A stretch of DNA of 64,000 nucleotides from a virus. How positions within the stretch are numbered: the first letter of the stretch is position 1; each line of letters begins with the position of its first letter. A program made the position numbers and the translations under genes. A model generated the notes under the pieces. That model was given only the letters and a program-made list of their open reading frames with translations, ran no database searches and was not told the DNA's origin. The stretch is taken from IMG/VR virus record IMGVR_UViG_3300006033_000025, one strand, 5' to 3'. Below are positions 359-52,951 of this stretch, in pieces.

Positions 359-691
359 TCACCGGGCCTCCGGCTGGTCTTTGTTCTCTGGCACCTCATC
401 GTCTTCGACGGGCACCTGGGCCTCCAGCGGCGGCATGATGTCGCGGAAGACGATCTCTTCCGGGACAAGGAAGTTGACCTGTCGCTCCTTGCGTGTGTTC
501 ACGTAGAGGCGACGCAGCTTGTTCGCACCGAGGTCACGGCACAGCAGGATGGTGTTGTAACCCTCCTTGGTTCGCGAGATGGCGATGAACGCCGACTCGG
601 TCTCCTTGCCATTGGTGAAACGGAAGAACTCGCCCGGCTGCACCTGACCGATGCCGACAGAGACGATGGGATCTTTGATAGTGATCTTCAC
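359..691 (-). CDS. hypothetical protein
   Basis: track ORF 359..784; N-terminus is R-rich junk, likely GTG start at 691 overlapping upstream stop (GTGA); VKITIKDPIVSVGIGQ... Confidence 0.5.
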   Translation of the reverse strand: MKITIKDPIVSVGIGQVQPGEFFRFTNGKETESAFIAISRTKEGYNTILLCRDLGANKLRRLYVNTRKERQVNFLVPEEIVFRDIMPPLEAQVPVEDDEVPENKDQPEAR

Positions 692-36713: not shown

Positions 36714-38996
36714 TCAGGTGAGGTTGAGGAACATGTCGGGCTCGTTGCGCAGGATCTTACCCCAGCGATCGTTGCCTTCGGACATCTTTCCGGTTTCTTT
36801 GTTCAGCTTGGGCACAGCGACGTCCATCTCGTCTTCGTACATGGACTCGGTGACCGTGATCTCTTCAGGCTTGATGAGGATAGCCCAGTTCATCGGGTGG
36901 TTGTTCCCAGGCCCGAAGACGTCGATGAGGTGCTGCCGTGCCTGGAGCACAGCCTCACGCTTCCGATCGGTGATGATCATGACTTCGTCGTGGATGTGCA
37001 GGATGTCCACGACGCCGCGCTTCTTGAGTTCGAGAAGCCCGTAGCAGAGCGCGTTGCGCGCTGCCGACTGGGTGACGTTCTCAATCGCGAGCTGCTTGGT
37101 GAACGGCTTCTCTTCGCCGGTCGCCTTGAGGATGGTGAGCCTTGGTTCCGAGTGGTTGTTCGTGAAGATCGAACGGACGAGCGGCTGACGCCAGCACACC
37201 GTCGGAGTCCACGGGCCACAACGAACGCGAAGGCTAACTCCTGTTGTTTCGTCGGGATCGAGTTCGATGCCGATCTTGTTTCGATCAGGAGCATAGTGCG
37301 ACTGGTACATCCGGTCGATTTCGTACTGTGCGTTGGCAGCACTGTCGCCGCACGCAGAGACGTTCTCAACCAAGCGGAGCAGCCAATCAGCCACGCGGGT
37401 GTACTCGGGGTACGCTTCGTTGAACAGACGGTGAATGTGATATGCAGCGAGAGCTGTAATCTCGGTGCAGTTGGTCTTCTCCATGATGTAGTTGAGCCGC
37501 TTGCTCTTCTCCCACCCAAGAGACAGACGCATCTCATTCAACTTCTCTTCAGTCACCTTGCTCTTCTTGTCCGCGAGAACGCCCAGTAGGACGTTTGCGT
37601 AGCCTGCGGCACCCATGCAGTAGCCGAGGCCGAGCACAGCAGACTTGGCGACCTGACGAACGGGATCCTTCTTGGTGATCGCGATCGACGTCATGGCCTT
37701 CCACGTCATGCAGTACGGATCGTTGTTGATGTCGCCGCCAAGGGCAGGGTCGAACATCTTGAACACATTCTTGGAGTCCGTCAGCCATCCTTCGACGCGG
37801 AACTCGACGTTCGCGAGGTCACCACGCACCAGACACTTGTCTGGCGGCATGCGGAACACGCGACGGATCGGTTCAGCAACCGACTTGTCGTGCTTCGGCA
37901 CGTTGTGCAGGTTCAGGCCCTTGCCAGATGATGGAGAGCTGAAGCGGAACGTGTGAGCACGGGCAAAGCCAAGCTCAACGTCGACTTCAGGAACGCCACG
38001 GAAGATCTTGGATCGACGACCGTGGCTGATCATCTTGTTGGCACGGCTGGTCTGCTTCAGCAGGTTCGTCACCTCCGGGTACTTGGCCTGGAGGATCGGG
38101 CTGAGCTTCTTCAGGCTCGTCGTCGGAAGCGTGACGTTCCACTTCTCGGTGATGAGCTTGCTCAGGCGCTGAACACGTACGGAACGGAGGGACCCGTCGC
38201 CCGTGTTGCGGTTGAACACTTCTGCGAGCTGCTCCATAGAGAGCAGTTCGGACGCGTTCTCCTGAGCATCGTTGGCATTCAAGTCCAGCTTCTCAATGAG
38301 CTTCACGAGCGCATCTGGATCTACGACGAAGTTGAACTGACGGACGTGGTGCGTCATCAGTGCGATCTCCTGCTCCCGTGCAGAGAGGCAGGCGATCTGG
38401 TAGTAGTAGATCTCTCGCATCGAATCGACGTCGCGGGTGTTGTACTGGGCCATTTCGGCACCAGTCAGCTGCTCCAGCGTCTTGCCAAAAGCCTCTTCGA
38501 CGTCGATCTTCAGCATGTGGACAGGAAGCTGAAGGAACGCGCCGAGCGCCTTCAGGCTGTAGCCACCAACGCACTCAGGCCACGCACCCATAGCGCCCTC
38601 GACGGTGCACCACACGTTCTTCGGCTGCGGGATGCCCAGCATGAAGCGGAGCACACGAATGTCGAAGGCCGCATTGTGACAGACGAAGACGTAGCGCGGG
38701 TCCTTAGCCAGCTCAGTGAGTAGCGCGATGAGGTCTTTGGGCGCCTCACCGTTCGGCGTCAGCCACACCTCAGTCGCGCTGTCTGCAATGGCAACAGCGA
38801 TTGACGTGAGATAGCTGTTCTTGATGTACTGCCTGAGCGTCATCGACGACAGCGAGATGCCGCGTCGCTCATTCATGTACGTTTCAACGTCGACGAAGAC
38901 TGGAATCAGCGTCGACAGTGGTCCCTCGGTCGCGTAGCGCCGACGGGCGCACGTGACCGAGGCCACGGTTTGCACCGTGGTCGGTTCAGTCAGCAT
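36714..38996 (-). CDS. DNA polymerase, family A, with 3'-5' exonuclease domain
   Basis: exo I VDVETY, exo II HNAAFD, exo III YNTRD; pol motif A DLANVEFRV, motif B RQVAKSAVLGLGY, motif C IHDEV. Confidence 0.9.
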   Translation of the reverse strand: MLTEPTTVQTVASVTCARRRYATEGPLSTLIPVFVDVETYMNERRGISLSSMTLRQYIKNSYLTSIAVAIADSATEVWLTPNGEAPKDLIALLTELAKDPRYVFVCHNAAFDIRVLRFMLGIPQPKNVWCTVEGAMGAWPECVGGYSLKALGAFLQLPVHMLKIDVEEAFGKTLEQLTGAEMAQYNTRDVDSMREIYYYQIACLSAREQEIALMTHHVRQFNFVVDPDALVKLIEKLDLNANDAQENASELLSMEQLAEVFNRNTGDGSLRSVRVQRLSKLITEKWNVTLPTTSLKKLSPILQAKYPEVTNLLKQTSRANKMISHGRRSKIFRGVPEVDVELGFARAHTFRFSSPSSGKGLNLHNVPKHDKSVAEPIRRVFRMPPDKCLVRGDLANVEFRVEGWLTDSKNVFKMFDPALGGDINNDPYCMTWKAMTSIAITKKDPVRQVAKSAVLGLGYCMGAAGYANVLLGVLADKKSKVTEEKLNEMRLSLGWEKSKRLNYIMEKTNCTEITALAAYHIHRLFNEAYPEYTRVADWLLRLVENVSACGDSAANAQYEIDRMYQSHYAPDRNKIGIELDPDETTGVSLRVRCGPWTPTVCWRQPLVRSIFTNNHSEPRLTILKATGEEKPFTKQLAIENVTQSAARNALCYGLLELKKRGVVDILHIHDEVMIITDRKREAVLQARQHLIDVFGPGNNHPMNWAILIKPEEITVTESMYEDEMDVAVPKLNKETGKMSEGNDRWGKILRNEPDMFLNLT

Positions 38997-39006
38997 GCAT
39001 GCTCCG

Positions 39007-41829
39007 TTACTTGTTGCGGTTCGGCTGCGGCTTGTCGCTGCCGTACTTGTCGGGGTTCTGCGCCACGTCCTTGATGTCTGAGGCCGTGTCGCGCTTCAGG
39101 TTGTCCTTGATGACGTCGGCCTGCGTTCCAGTCGGAGCCTGTGCGGCCACGGGGGCTTCGCCGGCCTTGAAGTGCGCGTTCAGTTCCTCAGCAGACGGAG
39201 CCGTGGGATCACAGTTGAAGTTGCCGCGCACCATGCGGTAGTAGCGGCGCTTCTCGGTCGGGGAGCGCGGGTCGTGGTACGACTCGATCTTCCAACCGTC
39301 GATCACCATCTTGCCGTCCTTCACAGCGTTGCAGAACTTCTGCACCGCCGTGCTCTCCTTGATGTGGTACTCGCGGAGAACGTCGGAATAGCGGCGCTGA
39401 TCCTGGTCTTCGACCATCTTGCGCAGCATTTCGGCAGCGCCCCACATCTTGCCATCGTTGCGAGCGATGATCTCCAGCGTGCTGACGGTGCACTGGCTGA
39501 AGAAGTGGCGGGCCGAGAACTCGCCGTTCGCACCGATCTCATCAGCCAGTCCGCTTTCGGTGGCCTTGAGATGCTGGTCCTCACACTTGTTGGCACATGC
39601 CTCGAAGTAGTCGTAGACCTCCTTCTCAGTGCCACCAGCAGCCTGACACAGAGCCACGGCAACTGCGATGAACGCAGAGAAGCGGTTGTGCTTGCTGGCC
39701 TTCGGGACGATGGTGTTCAGCTTCTCGACGAAGCCGATGCGGTCCATCCACGCGAGCGCGTTCATGCGCACGGTGCTGGCAGCGACGCCAGTGCCGATGA
39801 TCGTCAGCTCTTCGTCGGTGCACCGCGACTTGTCGTCGATAGTGTCCATGAAGAAGCAGAACGAACGGTTGCGGATGTCGACAGGGAACGCGCTGATCTT
39901 CGCGCAGATGACCATGGAGTGCTTGAGCTTGACGCCCTTGCTGTTTTCCATGGCGCGGCCCGGCGTGACCGTGCCACCCGTTGCCAGCGACTGGAGTCCG
40001 GCCTGAGCCAGGAAGTGCTCATGGCTCGACGGCAGCTGGAACTCGTCGTAGATCGCGGTGCCGTAGTCGTCGAGCGGCGAAGCCGCAGCGCGCTGAGCAG
40101 GTGCGCTCGACGAGCGCGACGGGATGATGACAGGAACGTTCGGGCAGATCGTGTGCAGCATGATGCGGCCCAGATTGGTCTTGCCCTGATTGGTCGTCTC
40201 TTCCTTCGTATGACCCATGGGGAGGATCATGCCGATAGGGTACTCGTTCACCATGGAGTTGCCGAGCTTCGTACCAGCCAGCTTGGGGCGAGCCAGATTC
40301 AGCAGGATCCAGGTGTCGAAGATCGCGTTGCGTGCCCGGACCATGCCCAGGTCATTGCAGTTGCGGATGTACTTGAAGACGGTTTCGGACGGGAGCATCG
40401 GCTTCACCTCTTTCGGGAGACAGGACTTCCAGGTCATGAGTTCGGACTTCGTGAGCGCGCCTTCAGGCCACTGGATCGCACCGATGTCGAGACCCGTGAG
40501 GATCTCTTCGATCACGACCTTTCCGCTGTCGTAGTCGATGTGTGCGACGTTGGTCGCGCCGATGCCGTAATCGACGAACATGTATTCCCCGATGTACTTC
40601 ATGGTGGGGACCAGTTCGACAGCCCGTGGAACAGCGAGGTGAATCAGATCATCGAGCGAACGAAGCTCGCACAGATCAGTCGGGCGCAGCATGTCGAAGA
40701 TGCCCAGGACGCTCGTCGACGGCGGCGGGAAGTCAGCATTGACTGACGTCGGCAGGCCGAGGGCCTTGAGAACGTCGATGCGCAGCTTGGTGTTCTGCGA
40801 CATACCGAACGATGCCCGCAGCTGTGTTGCGTCGAGGTAGAACAGGTTGCGACGCCCGTCGCGGATCACCTGCACGACGGGGCAGCCACGGTCACTGACA
40901 TGGCTGAACCGCGCGTACTTCAGGATGTGCGTGAGGATGACGAGCGTGAACCAGTCACCGGGAGCACACGAACGGCGTTCGAGGAACGCAGTCAGCTTTG
41001 CACCGTCGACGCGCAGCAGACCCATGGGGTAGCCATGGATTCGGCGTGCGACCATAGCGGACTCACGCAGCTGGTCTTCGTGGCAGGTCTCCCAGAAGTC
41101 GAGGCCCTCGTAGTAGTCCTTCAGCCGGCTTGCGACAGCACGAACGACACCGAAGCCGAGGCCCGTGAGCAGGCACAGATGCTTCCCATAACGAAACTCG
41201 GCGTCGAGATACTCGGCGCCGAGAGGCTTGAACCAGAAGCGATGGAGCTTGGCGAGCTGGTCGACGATCTCTCCGAGTGTCACGATGTCTTCAGTCACCA
41301 TCGTGCCGATCGCGGAGTGTGCCAGCGTGTTGCCAGCAGCTCCGAGACCTGTTGAGGCGCCGAATGGGCAGTCCTCTTTGAGCATCTTGACGAATGCCTC
41401 TTGGCATCCTGCATTGTCAGCGAGTGGAGATCCAGCGTTGCTACGGTTCCATGACGTCGGGCGATCATCGCTCTTATTCACGAATCCCGGCAGCCACGGG
41501 TTGGTCTCATCGAGACGACGCGAGAGGTTCAGGTTGCACTTCTTCGCGAACTGTTCCCAGGTCTCGCCTGGGCTGATTCCGCGAATGGCGCGCACAGCCG
41601 GAACATCGAACGGCGTCAGCTCTTCGACCTTCGGGAGCGTGGGGTTCTGCTGCGTGTGGTAGTGCCATGTCGAGGCACGACGAACAACAGCGAGCCAGGG
41701 CTCCTTCGAGAACTTCTGAAACTCTTCGATCACTTCCCGGCTGAACATCGGGCCGGTGTAATCATCCGGGTGCTTGATGACGGGTTCGCCACTTGGTGCC
41801 GGTTCCGGCACCGTGTTCACGGCATTCAT
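39007..41829 (-). CDS. large replication protein (940 aa), putative primase/helicase
   Basis: Walker-A-like NQGKT and hhhhDE-like AIYDEF in central region; position between DNA polymerase and exonuclease genes; domain call tentative. Confidence 0.85.
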   Translation of the reverse strand: MNAVNTVPEPAPSGEPVIKHPDDYTGPMFSREVIEEFQKFSKEPWLAVVRRASTWHYHTQQNPTLPKVEELTPFDVPAVRAIRGISPGETWEQFAKKCNLNLSRRLDETNPWLPGFVNKSDDRPTSWNRSNAGSPLADNAGCQEAFVKMLKEDCPFGASTGLGAAGNTLAHSAIGTMVTEDIVTLGEIVDQLAKLHRFWFKPLGAEYLDAEFRYGKHLCLLTGLGFGVVRAVASRLKDYYEGLDFWETCHEDQLRESAMVARRIHGYPMGLLRVDGAKLTAFLERRSCAPGDWFTLVILTHILKYARFSHVSDRGCPVVQVIRDGRRNLFYLDATQLRASFGMSQNTKLRIDVLKALGLPTSVNADFPPPSTSVLGIFDMLRPTDLCELRSLDDLIHLAVPRAVELVPTMKYIGEYMFVDYGIGATNVAHIDYDSGKVVIEEILTGLDIGAIQWPEGALTKSELMTWKSCLPKEVKPMLPSETVFKYIRNCNDLGMVRARNAIFDTWILLNLARPKLAGTKLGNSMVNEYPIGMILPMGHTKEETTNQGKTNLGRIMLHTICPNVPVIIPSRSSSAPAQRAAASPLDDYGTAIYDEFQLPSSHEHFLAQAGLQSLATGGTVTPGRAMENSKGVKLKHSMVICAKISAFPVDIRNRSFCFFMDTIDDKSRCTDEELTIIGTGVAASTVRMNALAWMDRIGFVEKLNTIVPKASKHNRFSAFIAVAVALCQAAGGTEKEVYDYFEACANKCEDQHLKATESGLADEIGANGEFSARHFFSQCTVSTLEIIARNDGKMWGAAEMLRKMVEDQDQRRYSDVLREYHIKESTAVQKFCNAVKDGKMVIDGWKIESYHDPRSPTEKRRYYRMVRGNFNCDPTAPSAEELNAHFKAGEAPVAAQAPTGTQADVIKDNLKRDTASDIKDVAQNPDKYGSDKPQPNRNK

Positions 41830-41940
41830 TGAGTTTTTCCTTCGTCGGGTGAGAAGCCGGAGGCCAAGCCGGCTTTGGATAGCGGGCAGTGTGTGCTGCC
41901 GGGACCTGTAAGCCTAGCTGATGGGCAAGGCCGTCAAGCC

Positions 41941-41955
41941 GCCACATGTTGTGGC
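41941..41955. repeat. palindrome GCCACATGTTGTGGC in intergenic region
   Basis: 6-bp arms around a TGT centre. Confidence 0.5.
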
Positions 41956-42010
41956 GTCATAAGTGCAGACCACCACGGGTAGCACGCGTGCATTACGCTG
42001 CATTCCCTGG

Positions 42011-42060
42011 TATTGCCCGCTATTGCCGTGTATTGGCCTATATTCCGGCTATTCGCGGTC
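42011..42060. repeat. array of five phased 10-bp direct repeats (TATTGCCCGC TATTGCCGTG TATTGGCCTA TATTCCGGCT ATTCGCGGTC)
   Basis: exact 10-bp periodicity of a TATTSC core; intergenic, upstream of the primase/helicase-polymerase block. Confidence 0.7.
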
Positions 42061-42702
42061 TGCTCCATCGTCCGCAGGCGCTGCGCGCATGCCTTCGCCG
42101 CTGAGCATCCACTTGAGCCCAGCGATTGAAGCGCGGCAGTCGTACTTCGCGTCGTGAGCCTTCTCGATGTTGTAGCCCGCGTACTTCGCGAGCGTGCCGA
42201 GGTTGTTCTTGCCGTTCACGAGTGCGCCCGTTGCCGGATCGCGCACCTTCAGCATGTTGTTCTTCTTGCGCCACTCCTTGAACTCGACGAGGGTGTCGAC
42301 CATGTCCGGTGAGAACATCATCGCGCACATCGGGAAGAACTTCTGGAGGAACGTCACGTCGAAGCGACGGATGTTGTGCCCGATGCTGACGGGCTTCTGG
42401 TCGGGGAACCACTGCCGGATGTACTTCGCGAAGAAGACTTCGGCTTCCTTCAGCGGCATGGCGTTCGCCCAGCCAGCTTCGGTGTAGCCGTTCACAGCAG
42501 CAGCTCCGGGCTCGATGATGAGGCCGGGCACCGGCTTGATCTTCACGCTGAGCGCGTCGATCTCGTCGAGCGCAGCAGTCACGACGACCATGGCGAGCTG
42601 GAGCGGCGGATTCTTCTCCGGGCTGAGGCCGCCGGTCTCGAAGTCGTAGGCGATGCCATAGGCGCCGGACGTTGCAGTGGGGACAGATGCGAGTTCAGAC
42701 AT
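42049..42702 (-). CDS. DnaQ-like 3'-5' exonuclease (DEDDh)
   Basis: exo I YDFETGG, exo II HNIRRFD, exo III HDAKYD; ATG at 42702; earlier part of track ORF is junk. Confidence 0.75.
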   Translation of the reverse strand: MSELASVPTATSGAYGIAYDFETGGLSPEKNPPLQLAMVVVTAALDEIDALSVKIKPVPGLIIEPGAAAVNGYTEAGWANAMPLKEAEVFFAKYIRQWFPDQKPVSIGHNIRRFDVTFLQKFFPMCAMMFSPDMVDTLVEFKEWRKKNNMLKVRDPATGALVNGKNNLGTLAKYAGYNIEKAHDAKYDCRASIAGLKWMLSGEGMRAAPADDGADRE

Positions 42703-43504
42703 GGTGATTTCCGTACTTCTGAGCGAGACGCTTGAGACTGGCTCCAGCGACTTCATCGAGGGTGAGGCCGGCGCTGATGGCGACGGCATTGAGGTAGAAC
42801 AATGCGTTGCCGAGTTCGACGCACAGAACGTCTTTCGGGATGCCGTTGGCGTCGCGCGTGGCTTTCTTGATGAGGGACGCGATCTCACCGGACTTACCGG
42901 CGAGGCCGAGCGCACTATAGCCGAGCGACCCGAGCGCAGTGTTCGGCAGCTTCGGGACGCCCTGTGCGTAGGCATTGAACGTCATCGTCGTATCGGAGTC
43001 AGCCTTGAGCTGCACGTTCTTGTGCACCGTCACGACGTTGTCTTCGACGACGATCGTGCCGACGTCGCCGGTCTCTTCGCCTTGCCAGATGAACTGGCCG
43101 TTGGCCTTGATGCCCCATGGCTTGAAGAGCTTCTCGATGAGGTATTCGAGCCACTCGGTGTACTTGTAGAACTTCTCGCCGCCATTCCAGACGAGATCGC
43201 CGTCATCGTCGATGATCCACTGACACCAGAGGCCGGGCTGCGTGCCCGGTGGGCGGTTGTTGTCGAGGACTGACTTGAAGTGGTCGCCCTGGCCGAAGTC
43301 GCCGGGTTCGCCGACGAAGAACTCGCCCTCGTCACCGGGCGGAAGCCCGACGGCTTCACGAATCGGATCAGGAACGCCGACGAGCCGCATGAAGCTACGC
43401 TTCATGCGGCGGGTGTCGGCGAGCTTGTTGATGAAGGCAGCCTGTGCGTCGCTCAGCTTTGGCGACAGCACGAGGTTGCCCTCGAAGTTGGTGGTGTATC
43501 CCAT
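42695..43504 (-). CDS. two-domain protein with C-terminal MazG-like NTP pyrophosphohydrolase domain
   Basis: ATG at 43504 overlaps upstream stop (TAATG); C-terminal LCVELGNALFYLNAVAISAGLTLDEVAGASLKRL is MazG/HisE-like. Confidence 0.65.
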   Translation of the reverse strand: MGYTTNFEGNLVLSPKLSDAQAAFINKLADTRRMKRSFMRLVGVPDPIREAVGLPPGDEGEFFVGEPGDFGQGDHFKSVLDNNRPPGTQPGLWCQWIIDDDGDLVWNGGEKFYKYTEWLEYLIEKLFKPWGIKANGQFIWQGEETGDVGTIVVEDNVVTVHKNVQLKADSDTTMTFNAYAQGVPKLPNTALGSLGYSALGLAGKSGEIASLIKKATRDANGIPKDVLCVELGNALFYLNAVAISAGLTLDEVAGASLKRLAQKYGNHHV

Positions 43505-43764
43505 TAGAGCCGCTTCTCGGGAAGGTCGACGCGAAGCGCTTGGGCTTCGGGCCGGTAGTTGATGTCGTTGGCGATCGCGTTCACCGCATCCTCCGGGTAG
43601 GTGCATCCACCAACCCGGAAGAAGTGAATGAAGGCTTCTTTGTTGGCTGCGACGAACTTCTGAACGATGATGCGCTCTTCGATGATCTCGTCGATGCGCT
43701 GGTTGTGCCGACGATCGAGTTCGCGCTGGAGTTCGTCTTCACTGAATGTGCTGAGGTCAGTCAT
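43504..43764 (-). CDS. hypothetical small protein
   Basis: last 86 codons of track ORF 43504..44559; ATG overlaps upstream stop (TGATG); MTDLSTFSEDELQRELDRRHNQRIDE... Confidence 0.55.
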   Translation of the reverse strand: MTDLSTFSEDELQRELDRRHNQRIDEIIEERIIVQKFVAANKEAFIHFFRVGGCTYPEDAVNAIANDINYRPEAQALRVDLPEKRL

Positions 43765-45315: not shown

Positions 45316-45325
45316 GGTTGCTCCG

Positions 45326-45362
45326 TGGAAACGAAACAGCCGGCGTCTTGCGACGCCGGCTG
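45326..45362 (-). terminator. intrinsic terminator after DUF932-like gene
   Basis: 11-bp perfect stem CAGCCGGCGTC/GACGCCGGCTG (45337..45362), loop TTGC, followed on the minus strand by UUUCGUUUCC; also T-rich on the plus side. Confidence 0.65.
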
Positions 45363-45390
45363 TCTCTTGTGTTTACGAACAGCGTCGAGG

Positions 45391-47699: not shown

Positions 47700-48440
47700 T
47701 TATTCTCCGGTGTTTTCTGATTCGACAATGAAGACACGGATGCTGTGCGTTCCGTACTTCTGTGCCCAACCAGTGGTTCGGAATCGGAGGTCGATGTGAA
47801 CGACTCCTTTATTCCGGGTGTTGCGACTGATGGTCGAGCCTGTGTCATCGACAGTGAACACGCGGTTTGTACGCGTGCTAAGGTATCCGCTTTCAACAGG
47901 GACGATCATCTTGGTGCCGTAGCGCCAACGGGGCTTGCCACGCGTGTGCGGGACTGCGATTCCGTACGGCTCTTCGAGCACATTGGTTTCACCATCAGCG
48001 GTGATCCAACGCCACTTACCTTTCGTGGCGTGGTAGTTGCCGTCGATGGGATCATGCGGGCTGTAGCCTGTGGCGACAACATCGACCCAGCGGCCGATGT
48101 AGCCGTCATAGACCTCCTGGCCGGGCTTCAGAACAGGAGCCGGTGCAGCCGGCGGTGCCTCGACAACCGGCGTGTGCACCATCGCGTAGAGCGCTGCTGC
48201 ATCGACTGCCGGCAGCGGGGCCGGCTCCTGCTTCTTGACAGCTGCAACGATCACCGGCGCCGGCTCGGGCCGGGCGAAGCGATCGAGGAAGAAGAAGGTA
48301 GTGGCTGCCACGGCCAGGGCCGCGATCAGCCATGCAGTTGCACGCAGGTAGTCGAAAGAAAACCCCCGAGCCTGCACTCGGGGGTATTCAGTGCTGGTGG
48401 CGCCAGCTAAGAGCCCGACGAAGGAACTCGCTCGTATCAT
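47700..48440 (-). CDS. 3D-domain cell-wall hydrolase (MltA-like) with N-terminal membrane anchor
   Basis: TM segment WLIAALAVAATTFFFL; C-terminal ATGYSPHDPIDG...GIAVPH...YGTKMIVPV...TVDDTGSTI...GVVHIDLRF matches the 3D domain. Confidence 0.7.
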   Translation of the reverse strand: MIRASSFVGLLAGATSTEYPRVQARGFSFDYLRATAWLIAALAVAATTFFFLDRFARPEPAPVIVAAVKKQEPAPLPAVDAAALYAMVHTPVVEAPPAAPAPVLKPGQEVYDGYIGRWVDVVATGYSPHDPIDGNYHATKGKWRWITADGETNVLEEPYGIAVPHTRGKPRWRYGTKMIVPVESGYLSTRTNRVFTVDDTGSTISRNTRNKGVVHIDLRFRTTGWAQKYGTHSIRVFIVESENTGE

Positions 48441-48470
48441 GGGGTATTCCAGGGTGAGTCAACGAAAGAA

Positions 48471-48520
48471 GGTGACAGGAGAGGGCAGGAGCTGGCAGGA
48501 GAGGACTGGAGCTGACAGGA
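48471..48520. repeat. array of five phased 10-bp repeats (GGTGACAGGA GAGGGCAGGA GCTGGCAGGA GAGGACTGGA GCTGACAGGA)
   Basis: NNNGRCWGGA core every 10 bp in the intergenic region upstream of the 3D-domain gene. Confidence 0.65.
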
Positions 48521-48587
48521 GGGGCTGGCCGGCGGGACGACTATTCTTGACTTGTGACGTCCGAATGGAAGTCCCGCCTACCCCTTG

Positions 48588-52896: not shown

Positions 52897-52910
52897 CGTG
52901 CGTCTGACAC

Positions 52911-52951
52911 CGGAGCCGGCAGCGATCGCTGCCGGCTCCGTTGTTTTTCAG
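52911..52951 (+). terminator. intrinsic terminator at convergent junction
   Basis: perfect 30-nt palindrome CGGAGCCGGCAGCGA/TCGCTGCCGGCTCCG followed by TTGTTTTTCAG. Confidence 0.75.

Follow-up and report, generated by a model that had tools for sequence, protein, structure and literature searches.

What does the long intergenic gap ahead of the replication genes in this DNA do: is its array of short repeats, spaced one helical turn apart, part of an origin of replication, part of a regulated promoter, or both? We addressed this within the window, that is, the whole 64,000-nt (64 kb) stretch analyzed, and by comparison with relatives of the genes that border the gap.

A gap at the head of a phage replication module

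The window has a G+C content of ∼60%, and essentially all of its plausible genes lie tightly packed on the minus strand. Their content is that of a phage nucleotide-metabolism and replication module, with ThyX-like, dCTP deaminase, DUF932, MazG-like, DnaQ-like exonuclease, SNF2-type helicase, ATP-dependent ligase, and polymerase genes. The gap and its neighbors are as follows:

41830..42048, 219 nt: intergenic gap, from the exonuclease stop codon to the start codon of the gene for a 940-aa protein
42049..42702, minus strand: DnaQ/RNase T-like 3′–5′ exonuclease gene, upstream of the gap (217 aa as called in relatives)
39007..41829, minus strand: gene for the 940-aa protein (predicted D5-like SF3 helicase fold), downstream of the gap (start ATG at 41829..41827)
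36714..38996, minus strand: family-A DNA polymerase gene with a 3′–5′ exonuclease domain, 10 nt 3′ of the 940-aa gene

These coordinates bear out the first-pass annotation, made from the sequence, in placing the gap just upstream of the 940-aa gene and the polymerase gene. Its further statement that this is the only long gap holds in part: the length is indeed 219 nt and no clearly non-coding gap nearby is longer, but the window has others (e.g. 48441..48587, 147 nt).

Neither the window DNA nor the 940-aa protein had a match in the GenBank phage collection, in which the family-A polymerase found only matches of ∼25% identity, and scans of IMG/VR with two DNA patterns and two proteins returned no match. 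The cluster to which the 940-aa protein belongs is recorded on a 200,781-bp contig, and the source of the DNA is probably a large uncultivated phage. Pfam and NCBIfam searches gave no DNA-binding domain in the small neighboring ORFs, Rfam and tRNA scans of the gap gave nothing (no Rfam match at gathering or E-value thresholds), and the gap motifs CTACCNNNGGTRG, TTACNGGTCCCGGC, and GGCAATAGCG showed no above-chance recurrence elsewhere in the window.

The downstream gene models as a D5-like helicase

Searches with the 940-aa protein against Pfam, PHROGs, NCBIfam, and PDB sequences found no match. An AlphaFold model built from 55 family sequences reached a pLDDT of 89 and a pTM of 0.81 (with four sequences, pLDDT was only 35). 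Its best PDB matches by Foldseek were ASFV PrimPol, the NrS-1 helicase region, SCCmec Cch, the SaPI5 primase-helicase, poxvirus D5/E5, PriRep1 with dsDNA, and AAV Rep40, with probabilities near 1 and low global TM-scores, the latter being expected because the query has multiple domains. A Walker A-like GK (549–550) and a Walker B-like DE (595–596) are invariant in the family. On this structure prediction, the protein models as a D5-like SF3 helicase. An earlier “primase/helicase” label for the gene therefore stands in its helicase half, for which the confident model matches D5-like SF3 primase-helicases, the primase half being putative. As a by-product, these comparisons outline a family of predicted D5-like helicases of 800–950 aa, with about 200 clusters at 50% identity, that no sequence library recognizes.

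Syntenic relatives

Among 5.8 billion proteins, close relatives of the 940-aa protein are very few, and so are those of the exonuclease. Three syntenic loci with the gap were recovered (L005, L008, and L006). The gap of L005 is identical to that of the window and hence uninformative. Protein identity to the window is 93% for the exonuclease and 79% for the helicase N-terminus in L008, and 64% and 56%, respectively, in L006. A farther syntenic locus, L007 (exonuclease 36% and downstream gene 29% identical; hhalign probability 100%), has no gap, its downstream gene overlapping the exonuclease stop codon. Four non-syntenic homologues (L001, L002, L003/L004, and L009) are preceded by a small gene of AlpA-like HTH type and by a terminator-like hairpin. 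No comparable tandem array was found in the DNA fetched around these four or around L007.

A first metagenome pattern scan for similar loci found nothing. A second, looser scan yielded 35 loci, all of which we rejected as chance, since they had neither tblastn homology to the flanking proteins nor the upstream promoter block. The only match in a genome scan was a Planctomycetota-binned contig that duplicates L003/L004. We also rejected a small ORF at 41762..41947, which by manual translation is not kept in L006 and in which all three differences between the window and L008 would change the amino acid.

A near-invariant island resembles a promoter and leader

The gene-proximal part of the gap holds these features:

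41830..41938, minus strand: conserved island of 109 nt, predicted promoter and 5′ leader, reaching from CTTGACG up to, but not into, the start codon
41931..41937, minus strand: −35-like TTGACGG, matching Caulobacter RpoD TTGaCgS at 7/7 positions; kept in L008, TTGACGA in L006
41911..41918, minus strand: −10-like GCTAGGCT, with the hexamer TAGGCT (41916..41911) 15 nt after TTGACG; matches 4/7 specified consensus positions
41898..41911, minus strand: conserved block TTACAGGTCCCGGC, around the predicted transcription start at ∼41904
41885..41900, minus strand: leader hairpin 1, GGCAG-CACACA-CUGCC; L006 has CGGCU-AGCAG-AGCCG in the same place
41855..41874, minus strand: leader hairpin 2, AGCCGG-CUUGGCCU-CCGGCU; partly kept in L006
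41834..41849, minus strand: putative ribosome-binding block CCCGACGAAGGAAAAA; identical in the window, L008, and L006

Between the window and L008, the island differs at 3 of 109 positions, compared with 104 of 312 flanking third codon positions (33%; Fisher p = 1.7e-12) and with a flanking coding difference of 17% over all positions (p = 1.6e-5). Against L006, identity is 74% in the island and 60% in adjacent coding DNA, a weaker comparison because a gap-optimized global alignment gives even the unconstrained upstream half 68%, with 55 gap columns. The blocks kept in L006 are CTTGACG, a 15-nt spacer of other sequence, TAGnnT, TTACnGGTCCCGGC, the two leader hairpins, and CCCGACGAAGGAAAAA.

The promoter-like match reads TTGACGG-N12-GCTAGGCT in the window and L008 and TTGACGA-N12-AGTAGAGT in L006, where the −10-like hexamer is TAGAGT at the same spacing behind an unlike spacer. 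Fixed hexamers around a spacer of fixed length and variable sequence are the classic comparative signature of a promoter, seen here in the one relative diverged enough to show it. The Caulobacter RpoD consensus, as quoted in PMC8144410, is TTGaCgS at −35 and GCtANAWC at −10, and the promoter scan described there allowed separations of 10–19 bp. Within the 64 kb, the coding strand has no such site other than TTGACGG-N12-GCTAGGCT; the number of consensus matches in the window is by itself not above chance. In the original description, the separation of the two Caulobacter elements was presumably 10–14 nt. A standard sigma-70 scan, with 16–18-nt spacers, did not call the site, and a sigma-54 reading of GGCAGC...CTGC was rejected on manual inspection, since in both lineages the spacing exceeds the required one by a base.

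Comparison with L008 and L006 thus supports a promoter in the gap, one of the two functions first suggested for it (as a strongly regulated promoter); its activity and a start near 41904 are predictions from the sequence. In leader hairpin 1, one pair changes from A-U to U-A in L006 by manual pairing, and the alignment tool counts the columns as broken. The stability of the leader RNA is not unusual (z = +0.3 and +1.3), so it does not explain the near-invariance of the island.

A 10-bp-phased array conserved in position but not in sequence

Upstream of the island lie the array and several inverted repeats, one of which reaches into the leader:

41989..42056, minus strand: seven-unit 10-bp-phased array with an AAT[A/G] core and predicted curvature; arrays in the same place in L008 and L006
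41941..41955, no strand assigned: palindrome GCCACAACATGTGGC; GCCACCATATGTGCC in L008, nothing comparable in L006
41970..41982, minus strand: small inverted repeat CTACCCGTGGTGG (CTACC-N3-GGTGG), with hairpin potential in all three lineages
41879..41888, no strand assigned: downstream arm of an exact 10-nt inverted repeat (plus strand ATAGCGGGCA), whose partner TGCCCGCTAT lies in the array at 42014..42023

On the coding strand, the units read cgcGAATAgc, cgGAATAtag, gcCAATAcac, gGCAATAgcg, gGCAATAcca, ggGAATGcag, and cGTAATGcac. Taken as [C/T]ATT, they start at 41991, 42001, 42011, 42021, 42031, and 42041, six at exact 10-bp spacing, and at 42050, a step of 9 bp. The first-pass annotation had described five copies of TATTSC at exact periodicity. 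The sequence that it quoted is exact and the 10-bp phasing is confirmed, but there are seven units, the core is [C/T]ATT (TATT in five units and CATT in the degenerate units at 41991 and 42001), and the last step is short. The shared core, AAT[A/G] on the minus strand, carries ∼7 bits in the window and L008 units, with little information elsewhere apart from a weak GG upstream. The exonuclease stop codon (TAG, 42051..42049, minus strand) falls inside the first coding-strand unit, and the one or two units of highest coordinate overlap this codon and the 3′ end of the gene.

The periodicity of the array is far beyond chance. The window contains just two period-10 runs, each in a non-coding gap, and the six ATT at exact 10-bp spacing are one of them; the period-12 runs of the window are all within coding DNA. 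We determined the longest 3-mer run over periods 7–13 in each of 40 first-order Markov simulations. It comprised 4 copies in 38 simulations and 5 in another, and the last simulation stayed under the reporting cutoff of 4; a run of 6 did not arise.

The first-pass annotation had named close relatives as the place to look for the repeats, and 10-bp arrays do lie in the same place in L008 and L006. Measured from the first T of TTGACG, the AA cores occupy −116..−57 in the window, −116..−66 in L008, and −130..−80 in L006, and the phase to the −35 element differs by 1–3 bp between lineages. The L008 array has six to seven units, with gain or loss relative to the window. Both share the AAT[A/G] core and differ in flanks and unit number, and they align with 20% mismatches and 21 gap columns, near the neutral rate. 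The L006 unit, CGTCRAAC (5.5 copies, 88% matches), is unlike that of the window and L008. In sequence, the three arrays have nothing in common beyond the 10-bp period and an A-rich core.

A palindrome had also been pointed out beside the repeats. It is present at 41941..41955 but is not conserved even in L008, where three changes break its symmetry without compensation, and the stretch between the array and the −35 element in which it lies diverges by 36% between the window and L008, about the third-codon-position rate. To judge from this comparison, the palindrome probably has no specific role. At the small inverted repeat (CTACC..GGTRG), L008 has a 7-bp stem with a 7-nt loop and L006 has CTACCACTGGTAG, the loops being 3, 7, and 3 nt in the window, L008, and L006. 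The inverted repeat that links array and leader extends to 14 nt in L008, at 93% complementarity, and its leader arm could be a looping partner for an array-binding protein.

Predicted curvature is shared by arrays of unlike sequence

Curvature was calculated as helix-axis deflection under a dinucleotide wedge model, with angles of the Bolshoy–Trifonov type, on which all figures in degrees rest. The window array is predicted to deflect by 31.8 degrees over 31 bp (99.2nd percentile of the window) and by 49 degrees over 52 bp (99.8th percentile). Over 52 bp, predictions are 59 degrees for the L008 array and 77 degrees for that of L006, both above every position in the window and each the maximum of its own locus. 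The bending first read from the in-phase A/T cores is thus what the curvature prediction returns.

Because any 10-bp repeat tends to sum its bends, we used nulls that preserve the period, namely column permutations keeping period and composition. Permuted arrays reached the observed curvature with p = 0.16 for the window, which places this array only in the top 16%, p = 0.03 for L008, and p = 0.003 for L006. Nor is curvature automatic from the period, since the second period-10 array of the window (48473..48525) has none predicted (72nd percentile). That period, A-rich core, and predicted curvature are kept while the repeat sequence is not argues for a function based on shape over one based on sequence, and predicted curvature common to arrays of unlike sequence is the strongest argument that selection acts on DNA shape rather than on a specific binding sequence, as far as the wedge model describes that shape.

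A proposed control region for the replication operon

Our preferred reading, held tentatively and with slightly less than even confidence, is that a promoter-associated upstream array of curved or architectural DNA is joined to the promoter and leader of the replication operon, both of which are under strong constraint. To the features described above (the array with its periodicity, conserved position, and predicted curvature; the conserved island; and the match to a promoter consensus), this reading would add that the promoter fires, that transcription starts at the predicted position, and that curvature or protein binding modulates it.

The gap would then be the transcription and translation control region of an operon comprising the 940-aa helicase gene followed by the family-A polymerase gene. 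One part would be the 109-nt island (41938..41830), supplying a host-type promoter that fits the alphaproteobacterial/Caulobacter RpoD consensus, the start site, a ∼75-nt leader with two hairpins, and a ribosome-binding site. The other would be the array with its 10-bp phasing, set 57 to 116 bp ahead of the −35 element. Of its properties, the period, the A-rich core, and the predicted curvature alone are conserved; the flanking bases and the number of units vary between lineages. The array may act as upstream curved or wrapping DNA that aids RNA polymerase, as phased A-tracts do elsewhere, or alternatively as a phased platform for an architectural or regulatory protein; by either route, it would set the output of the replication-gene promoter.

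This locates a probable control region, and with it a candidate origin, for the replication module of an uncultivated phage of ∼200 kb without a close sequenced relative.

Origin, operator, RNA, and slippage as alternatives

The array may instead serve as an origin of replication, either by itself or together with an autoregulatory operator, a possibility that we rate as somewhat unlikely. The downstream D5-like SF3 helicase would bind the units as short iterons and load itself, in the manner of SaPI Rep, SCCmec Cch2, PriRep1, and P4 alpha on short repeats adjoining their genes, and the adjacent promoter could add transcriptional activation. Since SaPI Rep and SCC Cch2 bind arrays of short intergenic iterons beside their own genes, those of the SCC helicase being 5-nt units (PMC7581432), this is a real rival. 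The repeats here are likewise adjoined by an initiator-like gene, the 940-aa model best matching SF3 primase-helicases and initiators (SaPI5, SCCmec Cch, PriRep1, and ASFV PrimPol), and the locus stands at the head of the replication genes. Repeats that might serve as iterons are present, with a 4-nt core in the window and L008 and well-defined units in L006, and this lineage specificity (window/L008 versus L006) is what co-evolving initiator–iteron pairs would show. An inverted copy of one array unit also lies 125 nt away, inside the conserved island.

Several features nevertheless speak against an origin. The gap has no AT-rich unwinding element, as the lowest GC fraction in any of its 60-nt windows is 0.53, a value matched in coding DNA, and no DnaA box, as TTATNCACA (≤1 mismatch) is absent from 41830..42060 and its total in the window is below chance expectation. 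Cumulative GC skew climbs steadily through the locus with no switch, although this is weak evidence because all genes lie on one strand and many phages show no such signal. No comparable tandem array occurs in the fetched DNA near five other helicase homologues, L007 lacking the gap altogether, and the low-information units drift near-neutrally between the window and L008 despite the closeness of the two helicases. Moreover, SaPI and SCC origins lie downstream of the helicase gene, and this array lies upstream of it. The origin and promoter readings are compatible, not mutually exclusive; iterons ahead of an initiator gene often double as its operator.

A bolder combination of the two, which we regard as doubtful, would make the array and the 109-nt island a combined origin–promoter of a new type. 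The self-loading D5-like helicase would recognize curved “mini-iterons”, with a 4-nt core per turn, ahead of its own gene, and transcription from the adjacent promoter, or the highly conserved leader RNA itself, would assist in opening the origin or in priming it for the linked family-A polymerase, with no need for an AT-rich element.

It is more doubtful still that the array is an operator or centromere-like site, on which a small phage or host protein would bind cooperatively to one face of the helix and repress or time the replication promoter, possibly looping to the inverted unit in the leader, in the manner of ParR on parC, TubR on tubC, omega on its heptads, or MetJ on its 8-bp boxes. 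The 10-bp phasing does set all cores on one helix face, and the inverted unit in the leader is kept, and longer, in L008. The L006 units, at 88% likeness, are more alike than curvature would require, a hint of recent slippage or of a protein that binds a specific sequence. However, the units of the window and L008, AAT apart, are highly degenerate. L006 lacks an inverted copy of its unit at the corresponding position, and its 11-nt inverted repeat is non-significant alone. Nor does the array cover the promoter: it lies far to the upstream side, at −57 to −116 relative to the −35 element. No partition genes or recognizable small DNA-binding proteins were found among the neighbors.

A structured RNA is very improbable. 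On this reading, the array in read-through transcripts would pair with 41855..41890 as the 5′ arm of a long, interrupted stem, forming a processing site or regulatory fold. The stem initially looked attractive, as the minus strand folds at −94.9 kcal/mol (z = −4.45 versus shuffles) and the exact 10-nt inverted repeat is kept in L008. It was rejected after a genome-background control and a look at the two relatives. Real same-strand segments of 231 nt also fold much better than shuffles do, and measured against them the z is only about −1.9; the opposite strand folds about equally well. L008 breaks the outer helices with no compensating change, and L006 lacks the stem. The Rfam scan, at either threshold, gave it no match, and a real promoter would leave the array outside, and upstream of, the transcript bearing the 3′ arm. 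Replication slippage leaving a functionless by-product in a non-coding spacer would fit the unit gain and loss and the near-neutral divergence between the window and L008, but it hardly accounts for arrays that persist in place, period, A-rich core, and high predicted curvature in three lineages with flanking proteins down to 56–64% identity, and we give it very little credence.

Comparison with known systems

Partition-type arrays (parC–ParR of R1, tubC–TubR of the c-st prophage, and the omega heptads) resemble the array in having many short units about one helical turn apart in association with a promoter; tubC units, for example, are 5-nt cores spaced by 6 bp (PMC6009700). They differ in that no partition motor or centromere-binding gene adjoins the array here, and in that this array, instead of covering the promoter, is situated well upstream.

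Classical iteron origins (lambda ori, P1 oriR, and RK2/R6K/pSC101) likewise place tandem direct repeats beside replication genes, and repeats ahead of the initiator gene may autoregulate its promoter. Their iterons, of 17–22 bp, recur roughly every two helical turns and are accompanied by an AT-rich unwinding element and, in many cases, by DnaA or IHF sites; the gap shows none of these features.

Closer are the iteron origins of SF3 helicases (the SaPI Rep ori, the SCCmec Cch2 site, PriRep1, and the P4 alpha ori/crr), with short intergenic repeats beside a D5-like helicase gene and, in SCCmec, a family-A polymerase gene (CCPol) linked to the helicase gene (PMC7581432). Unlike those, the array here is upstream, has no AT-rich region between or beside its very degenerate units, and has no comparable counterpart near five other members of this helicase family.

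A-tracts in phase with the helix are well established as elements upstream of promoters in bacteria and phages (PMC9825172), an example being the Alu156 promoter of Bacillus phage SP82 (McAllister & Achberger 1989, as cited in PMC9825172). The array departs from such elements in that its cores are AAT or AAA in G+C-rich DNA, shorter than the classical A4–6 tracts, that its seven units are unusually regular, that its phase to the −35 element is not strictly kept, and that its curvature is computed. It shares with them A/T-rich cores once per helical turn upstream of a −35 element, a position within roughly the −50 to −150 zone, and high predicted curvature that is kept across lineages while the sequence is not.

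Conserved island and inverted repeat at the array

The 109-nt promoter-plus-leader island (41830..41938) differs at only three positions from that of L008, a diverged syntenic relative locus with an array at the same place, and is more conserved than the proteins encoded on both sides. Predicted RNA stability did not account for this conservation; densely bound proteins, an operator acting on translation or a role in priming may lie behind it. An exact 10-nt inverted repeat has one arm in the leader (41879..41888, overlapping hairpin 1) and the other in one unit of the array (42014..42023). In the L008 counterpart (392..405 with 542..555), the array unit changes from AATAC to AATGT, extending complementarity to 13 of 14 positions, and the leader arm is unaltered. 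The repeat could support DNA looping or alternative RNA pairing.

At the other edge of the gap, the longest-ORF reading of the exonuclease gene (42049..42975, minus strand) gives 308 aa and overlaps the upstream MazG-like ORF (42695..43606, minus strand). Gene calls in relatives start at an internal ATG, giving 217 aa (42049..42702).

Other candidate control elements

Besides the array upstream of the 940-aa gene, the window holds only one period-10 run, and several further non-coding elements were recorded:

48473..48525, second array, period-10/20, within the non-coding gap 48441..48587
45316..45390, minus strand, G+C-rich hairpin followed by a short T-rich tail, intrinsic-terminator-like
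52900..52950, minus strand, the same
58124..58200, minus strand, the same

The second array reads CTCCTGYCAG five times on the coding strand (AGGAG-rich on the opposite strand), is preceded by a hairpin, GGCGGGAC...GTCCCGCC, and stops ∼35 nt short of the point where ORF 47700..48440 begins. No curvature is predicted for this array, which may therefore differ in mode of action from the array at the 940-aa gene; for example, its CUCCU repeats may act in RNA in an anti-Shine-Dalgarno-like manner.

The G+C-rich hairpins with T-rich tails, lying between same-strand genes, look like intrinsic terminators (e.g. AGCCGGCGTC-GCAA-GACGCCGGCT GTTTCGTTT). No terminator of this kind occurs in the gap 41830..42048. 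The predicted curvature maximum of the whole window lies near 58966, in a non-coding gap (58836..59034) that also holds a consensus TTGACA and may be another control region.

The 940-aa protein and its relatives

Sequence searches of Pfam, PHROGs, NCBIfam and PDB returned no matches for the 940-aa protein (39007..41829, minus strand), whose family comprises ∼200 clusters at 50% identity, with members of 800–950 aa. In the non-syntenic locus L002 (549..6217), a 914-aa helicase homologue (63% identical) occurs together with a family-A polymerase (83% identical to that of the window). The order of the two genes is swapped relative to the window, an AlpA-like HTH gene sits between them, and a UmuD/UmuC-like gene (Peptidase_S24 and IMS) lies close by. 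Because the pair recurs in another element in swapped order, it seems to be a module moving among phages and other mobile elements.

A confident AlphaFold model of the 940-aa protein (pLDDT 89) has structural matches among D5-like SF3 primase-helicases: ASFV PrimPol, NrS-1, SCCmec Cch, SaPI5 and poxvirus D5/E5. The protein and its kin appear to form an unrecognised helicase family.
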